The position numbers were made by a program, and so were the translations under genes. Below, piece by piece: positions 29,860 through 40,172 of a stretch of DNA of 52,806 bases. The notes under the pieces were generated by a model. The model was given only the letters and a program-made list of their open reading frames with translations, was not told the origin of the DNA and did no database searches. This DNA is from Escherichia virus TH24: the sequence record MT446398.1; one strand, written 5' to 3'. How positions within the stretch are numbered: the first letter of the stretch is position 1; the number at the start of each line of letters is the position of its first letter.

Positions 29860-30570
29860 TCCCAATATTCAAGCAATATTGCTGCATGTAATATTGTTTC
29901 AATATTCGACATTAGTTGGATGTGAAGTAACAGAATACGGAGAAATATTCCGCATGTCATGTTGAAATCATTCTAGAAACATTTCAGCATGTCAACTAAA
30001 CACACAGTGTTGTAATGATGTGGCAATCATTGAACTCCCTGTCTTTGGCCGGACAAAGTTCCAGCAACCATGTGTGAAGTAGGATTATCATTCGAAACTG
30101 TTCTTCAACTAAAGCATGACCAATTGTTCCGATGGTTGTCGTCGTCCTATTATCAAGGCCCACCCACAAGCCGGGATTATCATAGACAAGTTGGAACTTT
30201 TGGACATGCTTCTTTCTTTCAATCAGAATTCGAAAGAAGAGAAGAGTCGGAGCAAAGCCTCTCGTTTTCACACAGAAGCCGCCCCGATTTTGAGCAACAA
30301 ATATTGTGACAATATTGTCGCAGTATGGCATGTAAATATTGCTACAAATTGGCATGTTAGAATGTGGCAGAATTGTTAGAGGACTAATCACCTCGAAGAT
30401 ACAATTGTCTACCAATCCGGCATGTTAATTTTGTAACAGTATTTGTGCCAATTTCGCATGTAATAGCTGTATCAGTATTGACCCAATATTCTTGCAACCC
30501 GCATGAATACTGGCTTCCAGCCAAGCGAAGGCTTTATCATCGCATGTAAATATTGTGACAATATTGGGAT
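29860..30570. repeat. Cluster of palindromic CAATATTG / GCATGTAAATATTG motifs (operator- or iteron-like array)
   Basis: At least ten copies of (C)AATATT(G), several as GCATGTAAATATTG[C/T][T/G]ACAA[T/A]ATTGG, within ~700 bp lacking a convincing ORF; further copies at 27337-27590. Confidence 0.45.
29909..29927 (+). promoter_or_regulatory. Candidate phage-RNAP promoter (motif ACATTAGTTGGATGTGAAG)
   Basis: Perfect copy of the recurring 17-bp motif, directly after the RNAP terminator. Confidence 0.4.
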
Positions 30571-31065
30571 AAAACCCTTTATTTAGTTAGTTTTATTATG
30601 CTGTACATGGTCGGTTTTCCGTACCTGTTGCGCCACTTCTTGATGTGCCAAATACATTCCAAGATAGGAGCAAACCTGTAATTAATGATGCATGTTTGAT
30701 TGTGACTAAATTCGTCTATTTGGCAGATGAATTGGTTGCAATTAAGCATGTCCATTTATCATTAGTTGCATGTGAATAAGACCAAATCTCTGTAAATTCT
30801 GCTGAAATTGTGTGACAGATTTTAGAGAGATTATGTCTCCAAGCTAATCATTGTAGTTTTCGGCACTTAATGTGTCACATATATAGCCTGTGAAAAACGT
30901 GTGGTTTATTGCTGGATTGCAACGCGCCCACCAGACTAGGAAGTCCATGATGGCGGCACACACAGGAATACTATATAACTCCCTACAACTTTAAGGTGGA
31001 TTAAGGTAATACAGGACCTCCACAATCGTTCTGTAGGGAGTTTTCTTTTAACTTTGGAGAATAAA

Positions 31066-31314
31066 ATGGATACTGTTACTAAAGCGGCTTACTTTAAAGA
31101 CCTGCAAGATGGACAAATCTTTACTGTTCGTTCTGTGAAGTGGATTAAAGTAAATGAGTCAGATAAGTATAATGCTGTAAAGTTCTTTGATTCAAGTAAG
31201 GCATGTACTTTTAGCGACAATATTGTTGTCAATATTGAAATCGAATTAGAGCCAGATGATTCAAATGATGAAATCATTCTGCGCAAAACTGTTGGGTACA
31301 CTAAAGGATTCTGA
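31066..31314 (+). CDS. Hypothetical early protein
   Basis: GGAGA RBS 5 nt upstream of ATG 31066 (track start 31054 is TTG). Confidence 0.5.
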   Translation: MDTVTKAAYFKDLQDGQIFTVRSVKWIKVNESDKYNAVKFFDSSKACTFSDNIVVNIEIELEPDDSNDEIILRKTVGYTKGF

Positions 31315-31315
31315 A

Positions 31316-31558
31316 ATGAATTATGCACTGTATCAATATATCAATCGTGATGGTGTTGTTTCTCATGCTTTGGTTAATACTGAAACCAGAGCAATAATGT
31401 TGGCAGACTTAATGTCTTATACATCAATTTACGAAAACAAGCTGGTGTGGAAGAATGCCGCATATCCTGAATATGTTTGGCAAGCAATCCAGAATGACAA
31501 ACATCACAAAGTTGTGGCAACTGCCGCACATCCAGATTTCTTGAAAGTAAGAGGTTAA
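31316..31558 (+). CDS. Hypothetical early protein
   Basis: ATG 31316 just after the upstream stop, AAGGA RBS. Confidence 0.5.
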   Translation: MNYALYQYINRDGVVSHALVNTETRAIMLADLMSYTSIYENKLVWKNAAYPEYVWQAIQNDKHHKVVATAAHPDFLKVRG

Positions 31559-31560
31559 CA

Positions 31561-31749
31561 ATGGACTTCATCGTCTACTTTAAGTTAAATGGTGTAGAGC
31601 AAAGTTTGTACTTCAATTCTTTACTTCGTTTACAGCAGTGGGCGGAGAAGTTTGTTGGTTATGACTTTGATTACATCAATGCATGTACAACTGACGAACA
31701 TGAGGAAATCGTGTTCAGTTCTTTAAGCCAAATTCTGGAGGCAAAATGA
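31561..31749 (+). CDS. Hypothetical early protein
   Basis: 62 aa, AGAGG RBS. Confidence 0.5.
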   Translation: MDFIVYFKLNGVEQSLYFNSLLRLQQWAEKFVGYDFDYINACTTDEHEEIVFSSLSQILEAK

Positions 31750-31919
31750 ACGACCAGCAATTCAACACATTAATGCAGCAGATTAATCATCAAGAACTGA
31801 TGAATGCCATCGAAGGCAAGAAGCCAGTCGAACGTAAATATCGTAAAATTGATAATTATATGCCAACAATCATTGCATGTGTTGGTGTTGCCCTTGTTCT
31901 CTACTTCCTGGTGAAATAA
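31746..31919 (+). CDS. Small membrane protein (57 aa, C-terminal TM helix)
   Basis: ATGA overlap with upstream stop; C-terminal hydrophobic IIACVGVALVLYFLV. Below the 60-aa track threshold, translated manually. Confidence 0.4.
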   Translation: MNDQQFNTLMQQINHQELMNAIEGKKPVERKYRKIDNYMPTIIACVGVALVLYFLVK

Positions 31920-37978: not shown

Positions 37979-38844
37979 TTCCAGGCGGGTTTCTTCGAAG
38001 TGCCAAGCGGGTTTTGTACTCGCATTGGCCTTCGGCTTTAGTCTGAAACATTAGTGGGATTTGATTCTGACCTCTTAGGGAAGAAAGGCATTATAACCAA
38101 TCGCCAAATTGGTGTCAAGCACTTTCTTCATTTATTTTAATTTATTCTTATTATTCTTTTTGTTTGGAATATTGGAATAATTCTGAAACATTAATTGGAA
38201 TTGAAGAAACAACATCAGATAATAGCTTTGTAACTCGGTAGACCGTTACGGCCGATAACGTGCGAGAATGTTCGACTCATTCTACAAAGTTATTTTCGAT
38301 GGAATGTTTCCATCATATACATTTATCTTTTAACATAGGCCATAGGGCCGGAATACTTCTTCGCAGAAAAGCTATTCACTTGTTATAGGCGATGTATTGG
38401 GATGAATTGGAACTAAATAAGCAAGCTGTTAGGGCTGAATAATTAGAGGGTTGTGCCTCATGCTTATGTTAGTCATTCGAAAATAGGTTTGTGCCACAAG
38501 CCGCTGGTGCTCCGAGGAAGTCGGACAAACAGGGCTTAGAGTGGCATAATCCGCACAAAACCAAGCCACCAGCCACGCCAACGCTGGGATTTGGGTGAAT
38601 GTATTGGGAAGGGTTACAAAGCCTCTGTGACCTCCGTAGCTTGCCAGGCTGCGGCGCAGTTATGATACGCAGGTCGCACCCTAACGGGAGTAATCCTTCG
38701 CCAATGCAGTTATCCAGAATTGACACAAACGGTAGGCAGTGGCCCGATTTTCGGCCTTCCTGCGCTACTCTGTGGCCTGTTTCATAGGCCAAAAGATGAG
38801 AAGAGAGAAGTCACAAACACTGAATCGAAAATTGGAGAGTTCCT
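37979..38844. other. ORF-free region with motif variants and a GC-rich segment (candidate structured RNA or regulatory region)
   Basis: 866 bp without RBS-supported ORF; promoter-motif variants at 38048 and 38188; the 38460-38800 segment is visibly GC-richer than the genome. Confidence 0.35.
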
Positions 38845-39162
38845 ATGATTCGAAAGCATTCTGCTAAAGTTTTGACGTTAAGAAATGTCGTAAGGTCTTA
38901 CAGCAACTGCGAAAATGAGACTATTCATTTCGTACTTATTGGTGGGTCGTGGTACTACAACGGTACATCAACCTTAAGTATGTTGCGCAAGGCTCAGAAG
39001 GACGGATTTTGGGAATGTGATATTAAATATATTCTCGAGGATAGTCCTAAGTTTAGCTACGAAGAAATCATCAAAGCTTTCTACCACGGCCCAAACAAGT
39101 CTATGCAAATCGCAACTCGCGAGTGGACAACTAACCAAACATTTTATGGAGTTCCATATTGA
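38845..39162 (+). CDS. Hypothetical protein
   Basis: 105 aa, GGAGAG RBS. Confidence 0.5.
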   Translation: MIRKHSAKVLTLRNVVRSYSNCENETIHFVLIGGSWYYNGTSTLSMLRKAQKDGFWECDIKYILEDSPKFSYEEIIKAFYHGPNKSMQIATREWTTNQTFYGVPY

Positions 39163-39449
39163 ACTTACAAGATAAATCCAAAGAAGAGTTGATTGAGATT
39201 ATCCAGAAAGAGCACGAACTCGCTGGCATCACAATCAACTTCGAACTCCGAGCAATGCAAGCTGTTGCTTTGGGTCATGGCCTAATGGCTACACTCATTC
39301 ATGCCAAGAATGTGTTAGGCGTTAACGACGAAAAATACCAAATTCTGGAGAAAGCTGCGCAAGAGCGGATTTCACAGTGCTTGGTTACATTAGTTGATTT
39401 GGGAATCGACGCAGAAACTGCGAACAAACGTATCCTACAAGGCCACTAA
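39159..39449 (+). CDS. Hypothetical protein
   Basis: 96 aa; TTG start overlapping the upstream TGA. Confidence 0.4.
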   Translation: MNLQDKSKEELIEIIQKEHELAGITINFELRAMQAVALGHGLMATLIHAKNVLGVNDEKYQILEKAAQERISQCLVTLVDLGIDAETANKRILQGH

Positions 39450-39450
39450 A

Positions 39451-40125
39451 ATGTCTTATCATGATGATGACAAAGAGATTGCACTATCAACGTGCAAGCA
39501 ATGGCTCAATGATAATGATGCCGTCTATCTTGCCAAGGAAGATGTTATCATTATGTGGGTCCATTTTAATCCAGAATCGAAGCGCGGTGAGTGGCAACGC
39601 TACAAGATGAAAGAGGCTTGTCGCATAATTAAGGCCACACGCGCTGGCTTCTCTGCTATGAAATATATCAAACCAGAGATGCTAATGCTAGCTGCACAGG
39701 AAGAAGAACGTGCATATAAGCAAGCTGTTAAATCCCGTTCAACTGTTCCTCCAGAGTTCTTTAATTTGGAGCGCGCTGGTCACTTCAACAATTTAGAAAT
39801 GTTGACGCTGTGCCTGTTGCAAGAATTAGTTGGAAGAGGACAAAACATTGAAGCTGTTTGCCTTGGGGAACTCATGAAAGAGTTGTTCTTGACAAAGGGC
39901 TTTACTGTGCCAAACCGAACTTTACGCTGGAAATTGTTGCGAGCTGTCGCGCAAGAAGCTGGTGTAGTTGTTCGTGACAGAACTAACCGACTTACCATTA
40001 CGGGAGTTGGGCGTTTTGTAGCAATCCAGATTGAGGGTTATGACGAATCAATCATCACTGAACTCACTGTCGCTGAGACAAAGGATTTGGTAATCAAAAC
40101 AATCGAACGATTCAATATGTATTGA
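39451..40125 (+). CDS. Hypothetical protein (224 aa)
   Basis: ATG 39451 immediately after the upstream stop (track start 39394 overlaps the upstream gene). Confidence 0.5.
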   Translation: MSYHDDDKEIALSTCKQWLNDNDAVYLAKEDVIIMWVHFNPESKRGEWQRYKMKEACRIIKATRAGFSAMKYIKPEMLMLAAQEEERAYKQAVKSRSTVPPEFFNLERAGHFNNLEMLTLCLLQELVGRGQNIEAVCLGELMKELFLTKGFTVPNRTLRWKLLRAVAQEAGVVVRDRTNRLTITGVGRFVAIQIEGYDESIITELTVAETKDLVIKTIERFNMY

Positions 40126-40154
40126 GTCGTTTGTTAAATCAGAGCAGTCCTGAC

Positions 40155-40172
40155 ACATTAATTGGATGTGAA
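40155..40172 (+). promoter_or_regulatory. Candidate phage-RNAP promoter (motif ACATTAATTGGATGTGAAAAG)
   Basis: Motif copy ~78 nt upstream of ATG 40249. Confidence 0.4.

Follow-up and report, generated by a model that had tools for sequence, protein, structure and literature searches.

The 17-base motif ACATTAGTTGGATGTGA, which recurs between the genes of Escherichia virus TH24, is very probably the promoter core for the single-subunit RNA polymerase that the phage itself encodes (27852–29792). The stretch of DNA analyzed (record MT446398.1, 52,806 nt; hereafter, the window) holds almost the entire genome of a myovirus resembling phiEcoM-GJ1 (Chaseviridae, Carltongylesvirus) and is 81–93% covered at 88–94% nucleotide identity in comparisons with relatives in that genus. 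A first-pass annotation had put the motif forward as a candidate promoter for this enzyme, and every computational test that we ran agrees. The idea had already been published as a prediction for phiEcoM-GJ1 (hereafter, GJ1) in 2008, and is well supported here.

A recurrent intergenic motif on one strand

The repeated motif is confirmed as real. Searching both strands with up to three mismatches to ACATTAGTTGGATGTGA gave eight matches in the window, all on the plus strand, compared with 0.29 expected, and none of the 100 shuffles that served as the null reached eight. A weight matrix made from 25 sites in five genera set seven window sites (24–33 bits) apart from all others, where the null mean for sites of at least 18 bits was 0.04. 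All 14 matches of at least 9 bits lay on the plus strand and none on the minus strand, and 7/7 strong sites were intergenic, as the first-pass annotation had said. GJ1 was reportedly described by Jamalludeen et al. 2008, Appl Environ Microbiol 74:516. Its GenBank record (EF460875) marks this element, in syntenic locations, as 'putative phage promoter 1–9'; these labels are included below.

27768..27784, plus strand: variant copy GTATTAGTTGGACGTGA, 3 mismatches, 24 bits; 67 nt 5' of the RNA polymerase ATG
29909..29925, plus strand: perfect copy, 0 mismatches, 33 bits; GJ1 'putative phage promoter 1'
30759..30775, plus strand: copy TCATTAGTTGCATGTGA, 2 mismatches, 28 bits; GJ1 'promoter 2'
33520..33536, plus strand: perfect copy, 0 mismatches, 31 bits; GJ1 'promoter 3'; 73 nt 5' of ssb
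38048..38064, plus strand: copy ACATTAGTGGGATTTGA, 2 mismatches, 28 bits; GJ1 'promoter 4'; first of a tandem pair
38188..38204, plus strand: copy ACATTAATTGGAATTGA, 3 mismatches, 29 bits; GJ1 'promoter 5'; second of the tandem pair
40155..40171, plus strand: copy ACATTAATTGGATGTGA, 1 mismatch, 29 bits; GJ1 'promoter 7'; 77 nt 5' of ATG 40249
15471..15487, plus strand: degenerate copy ATATTATTTGAATATGT, 5 mismatches, 10.9 bits; in the structural module, syntenic with GJ1 'promoter 9'
47761..47777, plus strand: look-alike GCATTATTTGGAAGTGA, 3 mismatches, 17.7 bits; within coding sequence (S-A-L-F-G-S-D)
39823..39839, plus strand: look-alike GAATTAGTTGGAAGAGG, below 10 bits; within coding sequence (E-L-V-G-R-G); GJ1 'promoter 6'

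The first-pass annotation was right to call three copies (29909, 33520 and 40155) perfect or nearly so, and its positions were exact for 29909, 38048, 38188 and 40155, but 33519, 30761 and 27770 had to be corrected to 33520, 30759 and 27768. The remaining strong copies, for which one or two mismatches had been given, carry two (30759, 38048) or three (27768, 38188), although the 38188 copy is near the subfamily consensus. The AC said usually to precede the motif is present only at 40155 (A precedes four of the seven), and the purine-rich start holds for five of the seven sites and fails for the remainder; the base directly 3' of the closing TGA may be A, G or T. Three copies had been placed 75–80 nt upstream of an ATG, close to the 67, 73 and 77 nt that we measured from the 3' end of the motif to the starts of the polymerase gene (27852), ssb (33610) and the gene at 40249. 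Over all copies the distance to the next gene ranges from 67 to more than 600 nt, and the copies are irregularly spaced across 12 kb (850, 2761, 4528, 140 and 1967 nt).

In the 25-site alignment, information is concentrated in the ten-base core CATTAGTTGG (1.0–1.9 bits per position, with 0.7 at its last base) and in the closing TGA (1.2–1.7 bits), while the four bases between them carry 0.6–0.9 bits each and the flanks 0–0.7 bits, except that a T four bases upstream is conserved at 1.3 bits.

The structural module, described earlier as free of copies, has no strong one, but it contains the degenerate syntenic copy at 15471, a candidate weak late promoter. The two look-alikes are a different matter. 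The 47761 match, absent from the first-pass list, does not lie at the position of GJ1 'promoter 8' and is probably no promoter, and the 39823 match lacks the TGA end and is probably kept by protein coding.

The phage RNA polymerase and its presumed early transcription unit

27534..27589, plus strand: two overlapping sigma-70-type promoters with a duplicated GAGACTAGAATTGT, following a 92% A+T run
27852..29792, plus strand: single-subunit RNA polymerase gene (646 aa) with Pfam, profile and structure matches; presumed reader of the motif
29800..29827, plus strand: strong intrinsic terminator (12-bp stem and T-run), 8 nt 3' of the polymerase stop codon

We are confident, from homology and structure prediction, that the 646-residue protein has the T7 RNA polymerase fold. 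It matches Pfam RNA_pol (E=2.7e-18) and, in a profile search, residues 315–850 of T7 RNA polymerase (E=2e-18), and its AlphaFold2 model (pLDDT 91.4) finds T7 RNA polymerase complexes as the best Foldseek matches (E=1e-19). With the start codon set from the ST32 annotation and the sequence (ATG 27852), only ~160 residues stand ahead of the T7-aligned part, which begins at T7 residue 315. Residues F513–G526, HMM-aligned to the T7 specificity loop and forming a beta-hairpin in the predicted structure, are nearly identical across five genera, with V517 and Q520 as the only variable positions, which fits an invariant promoter core.

The sigma-70-type pair at 27534–27589 presumably provides the host-polymerase early promoters of the phage polymerase gene; its equivalent in the GJ1 record EF460875 is labeled 'putative host sigma70 promoter'. 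The terminator at 29800–29827 would end this early transcript of the host polymerase. The first full-consensus copy of the motif (29909) lies ~80 nt past this terminator and is the first copy 3' of the polymerase gene. It faces an ORF-poor, repeat-rich stretch of ~850 nt that in 4HA13 contains the end of a predicted terminal repeat.

Conservation of the motif among relatives

We compared the window with genomes of Carltongylesvirus (GJ1, MLP1), Sabourvirus (4HA13), Loessnervirus (Berlingot), Suwonvirus (PP101) and Myducvirus (PA_03). The motif occupies matching positions in the four further Cleopatravirinae genera, whose polymerases are just 66–77% identical, and syntenic sites are kept across all five genera while their flanks diverge. 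In GJ1, promoters 1–5 and 7 are ACATTAGTTGGATGTGA or differ from it by 1–2 bases, on the same strand as the window copies. The shared sites follow the polymerase gene and the tape-measure gene, precede the small-gene cluster, ssb and the gene next after the 243-aa ORF, and include the tandem pair. GJ1 promoters 6 and 8 fall within genes and seem to be by-products of the protein code; promoter 8 encodes the conserved peptide ALVGxDF.

Site by site, the 29909 copy has orthologs in all five genera, and downstream of it AGTAACAGAAYACGG is common to the window, 4HA13 and PP101. The 30759 copy, which precedes a cluster of small early or middle genes, shares an unusual C at position 11 with its counterparts in GJ1, MLP1 and Berlingot. 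The copy 5' of ssb recurs in GJ1, 4HA13, PP101 and PA_03 and is degenerate in Berlingot; tandem pairs like 38048/38188 are found in GJ1, MLP1 and 4HA13; and the 40155 copy corresponds to 4HA13 12635, PP101 14252 and PA_03 14344. The copy 5' of the polymerase gene, a candidate weak promoter for positive feedback, is missing from the GJ1 annotation but conserved in GJ1 (571), MLP1 (1852), 4HA13 (122) and PP101 (355), with weaker equivalents in PA_03 (172) and Berlingot (19906).

The degenerate 15471 copy (10.9 bits) has stronger counterparts after the tape-measure gene in GJ1 (promoter 9, 22 bits), PP101 (21 bits) and Berlingot (20 bits), and the 31-kb late region of PP101 holds a single match, in this same place. 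The copy lies between the terminator of the tape-measure gene and the baseplate genes:

15441..15460, plus strand: intrinsic terminator (hairpin and T-run) at the end of the tape-measure gene, directly before the 15471 copy

Terminator and then motif align here in the window, GJ1 and Berlingot, and the terminator stem is retained through compensatory changes in all three. This terminator-then-promoter layout, seen after both the polymerase gene and the tape-measure gene, counts in favor of a promoter.

The consensus also drifts by lineage (A at position 11 in 4/4 strong PA_03 sites; AATTGA favored in 4HA13), a pattern that co-evolution of the sites with a single trans-acting reader would produce. 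In pAh6-C (41.6 kb, both strands), the one Nefertitivirinae phage examined, there was no match of at least 12 bits; its polymerase is ~35% identical and a different plus-strand repeat follows the polymerase gene. Motif and polymerase lineage go together, again in favor of a promoter.

Proposed transcription program

The analysis shows the motif with its statistics, strand, placement and conservation, as well as the polymerase fold; from these data we infer polymerase binding to the motif, the start site and the timing of transcription. Host RNA polymerase would initiate at the sigma-70 promoters near the left genome end, transcribe the phage polymerase gene and halt at the 29800–29827 terminator. 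The newly made phage polymerase would then bind double-stranded DNA at an element of ~21 bp, T-N3-ACATTAGTTGGAWKTGA, and transcribe rightward from seven sites across the next 12 kb, serving early and middle genes, ssb, and anti-restriction and lysis-related genes, while the weak copy 5' of its own gene may supply positive feedback. Replication, structural and lysis genes, which lie on the same strand, would be reached mainly through read-through, with a contribution from the weak copy that follows the tape-measure terminator (15471). On the T7 model, the specificity-loop hairpin would recognize the invariant TTA.T.G block, and the N-terminal domain the A-rich 5' part. Melting would take place over the four variable bases, which are A/T-rich in most copies, and +1/+2 are predicted to fall on the near-invariant G-A (motif positions 16–17). 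Given the ~160 residues ahead of the T7-aligned region, T7-style recognition of the A-rich part is an assumption. With 7–8 copies and almost none in the ~37 kb of replication and late genes, the scheme needs very long read-through or a second promoter type that escaped detection, and the copies at 29909 and 38048/38188 count against a promoter in that they face long ORF-poor stretches and not genes.

Alternative explanations

The motif could instead be the operator of another phage DNA-binding protein, an activator of host RNA polymerase or a repressor, with the promoters of the phage polymerase elsewhere. There is precedent in MotA/AsiA, which redirects host RNA polymerase at T4 middle promoters. 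The early region encodes many small uncharacterized proteins, the late genes have few or no copies ahead of them, the link between motif and polymerase is putative, and the 2022 ICTV profile states that Chaseviridae promoters 'have not yet been identified'. Our literature search found no experimental test of the motif and turned up neither transcript 5' ends nor in vitro data for any Chaseviridae phage. We nevertheless consider an operator unlikely. Nothing is conserved at a fixed distance downstream (columns past the TGA carry at most 0.6 bits), no sigma-70 −10 element was found at the motif copies, the hexamers 17 nt past TTGGAT (GGAGAA, TCCGTG, CTTTAA, TCTGTA) are not −10-like, and a sigma-70 scan of the region gave no excess of promoters (33, compared with 35.5 in shuffles). 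The motif follows the polymerase lineage, and we found no other repeat family in the genome able to serve as the polymerase promoter.

Two further roles are each improbable. The motif might act in RNA, as an RNase processing site, a stabilizer or a translational operator: it lies in 5' untranslated regions ahead of three start codons, some copies adjoin conserved hairpins (e.g., 33487–33509), and RNase III sites occur near T7 promoters. However, no stable hairpin was predicted in the motif (0 to −3 kcal/mol, z-scores −1.4 to +1.5), its 4-bp ACAT/ATGT complementarity is lost without compensation at 27768, 38048 and 38188, the distance to the next gene is not fixed, and the strong terminator ahead of the first full-consensus copy would leave little read-through RNA there.

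The motif might also serve replication or packaging at the DNA level, in the form of iterons or of promoter-primed origins like the one at phi1.1A/1.1B of T7, with transcription secondary or absent. The tandem copies border a 60-nt segment that ranks second in the genome for A+T content (85%), and also an ORF-poor stretch, and 29909 faces the repeat-rich gap. Yet the irregular spacing, with each copy before a gene block, is not iteron-like, the A+T run more plausibly serves a neighboring conserved minus-strand sigma-70 promoter as its UP element, and an origin at one or two copies would supplement promoter function, as in T7.

Base composition, coding or plain chance could account for the look-alikes at 39823 and 47761, which come from L-V-G or L-F-G codons, but for the seven strong sites such an origin is refuted by the shuffles, the weight-matrix statistics and conservation in five genera.

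Relation to known single-subunit polymerase promoters

As in phage N4 with its virion RNA polymerase, a phage-encoded T7-family polymerase would here have its own short promoter. N4 promoters are extruded DNA hairpins, unlike the window motif, which forms no stable hairpin and does not keep its partial self-complementarity. The window motif was detected by the same logic as in the promoter mining of Zhu et al. 2025 (PMC11880802), where a single-subunit polymerase gene in the genome is matched with a motif repeated between genes; that survey describes four promoter classes (T7-like, KP34-like, phiKMV-like and Syn5-like) and 741/1757 genomes without a definite promoter, and names no Chaseviridae phage in its text. 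The motif has no overall match to the T7, T3, SP6 or K11 consensus, which counts against the promoter reading; only a short ATTAG-like stretch may recall K11 and SP6. Presumably it is not among the four mined logos either.

Promoters of the T7 group (T7, T3, SP6, K11; Autographiviridae) are read by polymerases of the same fold. That group has ~17 copies and podovirus morphology, whereas the window, a myovirus genome, has 7–8, hardly any of them before late genes and one 5' of the polymerase gene itself; its polymerase is shorter (646 aa vs 883 aa in T7), with ~160 residues in place of the 312-residue N-terminal promoter-binding domain. Like T7-group promoters, the motif is ~20 bp long, asymmetric, duplex without a hairpin, intergenic and co-directional with the genes, with its first full-consensus copy just past the polymerase gene and with tandem copies, and its information profile (conserved block, four variable bases, G-A) resembles the binding, melting and start regions of T7 promoters.

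The motif and its distribution

The phage belongs to the genus Carltongylesvirus of the family Chaseviridae. All long ORFs of the window lie on the + strand, with Pfam matches to a large terminase, a primase-helicase, a family A DNA polymerase, ThyX, NrdB and a DNA-dependent RNA polymerase domain; neither Rfam nor a tRNA scan gave a match anywhere in the window. Megablast of window 27000-41000 matched 69 phage records, headed at 87-94% identity by the Escherichia phages MLP1, TH25/28/33, DE15, ST32 and phiEcoM-GJ1 (EF460875; hereafter GJ1) and the Yersinia PYps phages. Because 1-1031 recurs at 51776-52806 (1030/1031 bases, the single mismatch being at position 994), we read the window as a complete genome of ~51.8 kb (~51,775 bp) written past a circular join or terminal redundancy.

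The first-pass annotation had noticed a recurring 17-bp motif and proposed it as a promoter for the phage single-subunit RNA polymerase. The recurrence was borne out: ACATTAGTTGGATGTGA at <=3 mismatches has eight matches, all on the + strand, against 0.29 expected. Coordinates first assigned to the copies held except at three sites, where they were 1-2 nt off, and the variants carry 2-3 mismatches instead of the one or two originally counted.

Features of the window associated with the motif
15471-15487, + strand: degenerate motif copy (5 mismatches) between the tape-measure and baseplate genes, equivalent to GJ1 'promoter 9'
27534-27589, + strand: two overlapping sigma-70-type promoters with a 92% A+T run, upstream of the polymerase gene
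27768, 29909, 30759, 33520, 38048, 38188, 40155 and 47761, + strand: motif matches at <=3 mismatches
27852-29792, + strand: single-subunit RNA polymerase gene (646 aa; ATG with Shine-Dalgarno GGAGA, as in the ST32 annotation)
29800-29827, + strand: terminator of the polymerase gene (12-bp stem, 3' of the gene)

Scored with a weight matrix built from 25 sites in five genera, seven strong sites, all of them intergenic, reach 24-33 bits and are followed by a clear gap, below which lie 47761 (17.7 bits), 1000 (14.5 bits; same sequence as 52775) and 15471 (10.9 bits); random sequences yield 0.04 matches at 18 bits. Every one of the 14 window matches scoring >=9 bits is on the + strand. In the 25-site alignment T4, T5, A6, T8 and G10 never change and T15, G16 and A17 hardly do, while positions 11-14 and the flanks vary. 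The resulting information profile has a conserved block followed by four variable bases, A/T-rich in most copies, and then by a near-invariant G-A. The motif is one asymmetric conserved element, repeated and co-directional with the genes, as a promoter of 17-23 bp would be.

A short T7-family RNA polymerase

A single-subunit RNA polymerase is encoded in the same genome, as indicated by a Pfam RNA_pol match, a T7 profile match, a structural model and Foldseek. A start at 27915 was ruled out in favour of the ATG with a Shine-Dalgarno sequence at 27852. Searching PDB sequences with phmmer gave no match for the polymerase, and a profile of 46 homologues was needed to align its positions 162-615 with T7 RNA polymerase 315-850 (E=2e-18). 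The AlphaFold2 model (pLDDT 91.4, pTM 0.86) finds T7 RNA polymerase initiation and elongation complexes as its best Foldseek matches (E=1e-19), with mitochondrial RNA polymerases next, and its catalytic motifs (DxxxxD...K, R..K..Y-G and H-D) show no variation. The enzyme is much shorter than the 883-aa T7 RNA polymerase, having ~160 residues ahead of the region aligned with T7 residue 315, compared with a T7 N-terminal domain of 312 residues. To our knowledge it is among the smallest T7-family polymerases known, and it may interest enzyme engineers. Metagenomes commonly contain homologues of 626-670 aa, and bacterial chromosomes carry two (Hafnia alvei and Pseudomonas brenneri).

The equivalent of the T7 specificity loop (residues 739-761) is F513-W534 in the HMM alignment, with predicted beta-strands. 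Across GJ1 and the more distant phages 4HA13, PP101, Berlingot and PA_03, the segment F513-G526 is almost constant, varying only at V517 and Q520.

Conservation of the motif with the polymerase

For comparison we took the loci around the polymerase genes of 4HA13 (Sabourvirus), Berlingot (Loessnervirus), PP101 (Suwonvirus) and PA_03 (Myducvirus), whose polymerases are 77%, 72%, 72% and 68% identical to that of the window. Each of the four loci holds 5-8 motif matches (<=3 mismatches) where ~0.3 are expected, nearly all on the + strand. The matches occupy syntenic positions: downstream of the polymerase gene, upstream of ssb and of the gene following a 243-aa ORF, and in the ORF-poor region that comes after the anti-restriction gene. 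Positions 11-14 drift by lineage, with A at position 11 in each of the four strong PA_03 sites and a preference for AATTGA in 4HA13. The motif core is kept in the five genera in which F513-G526 is almost constant and is absent in the Aeromonas phage pAh6-C, of the sister subfamily Nefertitivirinae, whose polymerase is ~35% identical and whose scanned sequence contains no motif match; pAh6-C carries another + strand repeat, TAAGGCTCTTCGAGCCACAAG, located in the gap that follows the polymerase gene and again beyond it. Conservation along with the recognition loop, drift within lineages and replacement where the polymerase is very different are what a polymerase-specific promoter predicts.

All comparative evidence at hand thus favours the promoter reading of the first-pass annotation, and judging from sequence comparison the phage polymerase very probably initiates at these motif sites. 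Analogy with T7 suggests G16 as a putative start (+1).

We dropped a link between the G-to-A shift at position 11 in the Proteus phage and loop residue 520; GJ1 has A520 yet keeps G11. In pAh6-C 21813-27005 (L007), TAAGGCTCTTCGAGCCACAAG has 4-6 + strand copies beginning ~180 nt after the polymerase gene and includes an inverted repeat of 5 bp around a 3-nt loop; it may be a Nefertitivirinae promoter or an RNA hairpin signal.

Placement of the motif copies

In T7, host promoters are followed by the polymerase gene and then by phage promoters, and the layout of the window matches this order. The first perfect motif copy (29909) begins 82 nt past the end of the terminator stem of the polymerase gene; other copies lie upstream of a small-gene cluster (30759), ssb (33520) and the gene at 40249 (40155), and 38048 and 38188 form a tandem pair. 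Terminators, which promoters of this kind typically follow, precede the copies at 29909 and 15471, ending the polymerase and tape-measure genes, respectively. The seven strong copies are all intergenic and ahead of gene blocks, and they lie beyond the host-transcribed early region except for the weak copy at 27768, which, unlike the arrangement in T7, sits 67 nt 5' of the polymerase ATG. Every one of the five genera examined has a counterpart of this copy, a strong one in GJ1, MLP1 (same genus as GJ1), 4HA13 and PP101 and a weak one in PA_03 and Berlingot, which suggests that the polymerase gene may be under positive feedback through it.

Several leader and hairpin elements lie close to these sites. 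A G+C-rich stretch at 27600-27700 (GGGCCAGCGGGGAGGGGAAGCCC...GGTCCCTACCCC), within the long leader that separates the polymerase gene from the sigma-70 promoters, looks structured; Rfam has nothing for it. Directly upstream of the ssb motif copy, a hairpin AGGAGCATTCATTGAGTGTTCCT is followed by GATTAATT (33487-33509), its stem kept by compensatory changes in PP101 and Berlingot, and a second hairpin followed by GATTAATT is found at 35022-35055; both may be phage-polymerase terminators or RNase III sites. Between the motif copy and the ssb start codon, the leader at 33555-33610 (CTGAAACTTAAACCGTAAATTAAC) is more conserved across genera than typical intergenic DNA and could be a translational operator for ssb.

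Alternative explanations

The motif would leave ~37 kb of replication and late genes to be transcribed from very few promoters. Read-through on a genome coded on a single strand is the simplest answer. A second promoter type might instead serve the replication and late genes, but a repeat search of the genome produced no other candidate repeat family.

Initiation by the host polymerase would require a bacterial sigma-70 promoter (-35/-10 with 16-18 bp spacing) at the motif or a -10 element downstream of it. Only 38188 offers any likeness, a chance 9/12 match. The 25-site alignment contains no -10-like element at a fixed distance after the motif and no conserved downstream position, and the motif region has no excess of sigma-70-like sites, a result that speaks against promoters of the host polymerase, whether or not an activator is involved. 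The copies do not fold (MFE 0 to -3 kcal/mol, like shuffles), and the ACAT/ATGT stem complementarity within the motif is broken without compensation in three of them, which makes an N4-type hairpin promoter or an RNA structure unlikely. Irregular spacing and position before gene blocks argue against iterons.

Earlier annotation and re-reading of individual sites

Putative phage promoters have been annotated at most of these places before. Besides one 'putative host sigma70 promoter', the GJ1 record EF460875 has nine features named 'putative phage promoter', the sequences of which are the window motif. GJ1 promoters 1, 2, 3, 4, 5 and 7 map one-to-one to six of the seven strong window sites, and promoter 9 corresponds to 15471. 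The motif and its interpretation as a promoter are not new, having stood in that record since 2008. The 2022 ICTV profile describes the promoters as 'not yet identified', which we read as 'not shown by experiment'; neither the papers on ST32, 4HA13, the PYps phages, PP101 and Tiny nor wider searches yielded any transcript mapping or in vitro work, and a full-text search for the motif string returned no relevant paper.

The first-pass annotation had placed no copy in the structural module, which holds apart from the one conserved weak copy at 15471. A hairpin-plus-T-run terminator whose stem shows compensatory changes lies directly before it, and the same spot scores 22 bits in GJ1 and 20 bits in Berlingot, and in PP101 (21 bits) it is the sole match of >=9 bits in 31 kb of late region. 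Three other sites fall within coding sequence: GJ1 'promoter 6' (window 39823) encodes E-L-V-G-R-G; GJ1 'promoter 8' encodes the conserved peptide A-L-V-G-x-D-F, and the DNA match is gone at the orthologous place in the window; and the 47761 match encodes S-A-L-F-G-S-D, elsewhere in a divergent ORF. We treat these three sites as presumptive coding look-alikes.

As a sequence observation, then, our analysis adds little to the 2008 GJ1 record beyond cross-genus conservation, the additional copy 5' of the polymerase gene, the late copy conserved behind the tape-measure gene, and arguments for reading two of the nine GJ1 'promoters' as by-products of coding.

Promoter class and significance

The T7/T3/SP6/K11 class (TAATACGACTCACTATAG-type) has a consensus with TATA at -4 to -1 and GGG/GAA at +1. 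When the 25-site alignment was inspected against the class consensuses, the motif did not fit: the four bases before the conserved G-A are its least conserved part (0.6-0.9 bits). The motif would work like this class without being a member of it.

A 2025 survey (PMC11880802) distinguishes four single-subunit polymerase promoter classes and leaves 741 of 1757 genomes without a prediction; its text names no Chaseviridae phage. We lean towards the view that the motif represents a further class (Cleopatravirinae type, T-N3-ACATTAGTTGGAWKTGA, after the subfamily of GJ1), outside the T7-, KP34-, phiKMV- and Syn5-like classes and read by an unusually small T7-family enzyme (646 aa) with about half the usual N-terminal promoter-binding domain. 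If true, this would close the gap flagged by ICTV, add a small polymerase and its promoter as an orthogonal pair, and call for an explanation of how promoter binding and melting are achieved with a truncated N-terminal domain. Experimental confirmation would give a transcription map for the whole family Chaseviridae, members of which are used in phage therapy and biocontrol work against E. coli, Yersinia, Erwinia and Pectobacterium, and would offer synthetic biology a short polymerase with a ~20-bp promoter.

A predicted minus-strand promoter and the ORF-poor gap

Between the tandem copies 38048 and 38188 lies a perfect sigma-70 consensus, TTGACA-N17-TATAAT, on the - strand (38090-38118); the window contains no second perfect match (0.06 expected). 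An 85% A+T run (38123-38182) is located just upstream of its -35, where an UP element would be. GJ1, MLP1, 4HA13, PP101, Proteus PA_03 and one IMG/VR contig (L026) have one perfect minus-strand copy each, and the genes of the phages sharing it are all on the + strand. The start of this promoter (~38083) would face motif copy 38048, and a leftward RNA of ~240 nt could terminate at a bidirectional hairpin (37841-37860); antisense RNA, replication priming and promoter interference are candidate roles.

In the ORF-poor gap of ~1.2 kb after the polymerase gene (29830-31225), a second repeat, GCATGTAAATATTGTGACAATATTG, occurs five times. The gap also has many CAATATT units, which cluster as well at 27330-27400, close to the presumed left end of the genome (27279). 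Its DNA is ~70% identical to that of 4HA13, and its two overlapping reading frames have about equal tblastn scores, which suggests a non-coding function. The predicted terminal repeat of 4HA13 (3120 bp) has its end within the corresponding gap.
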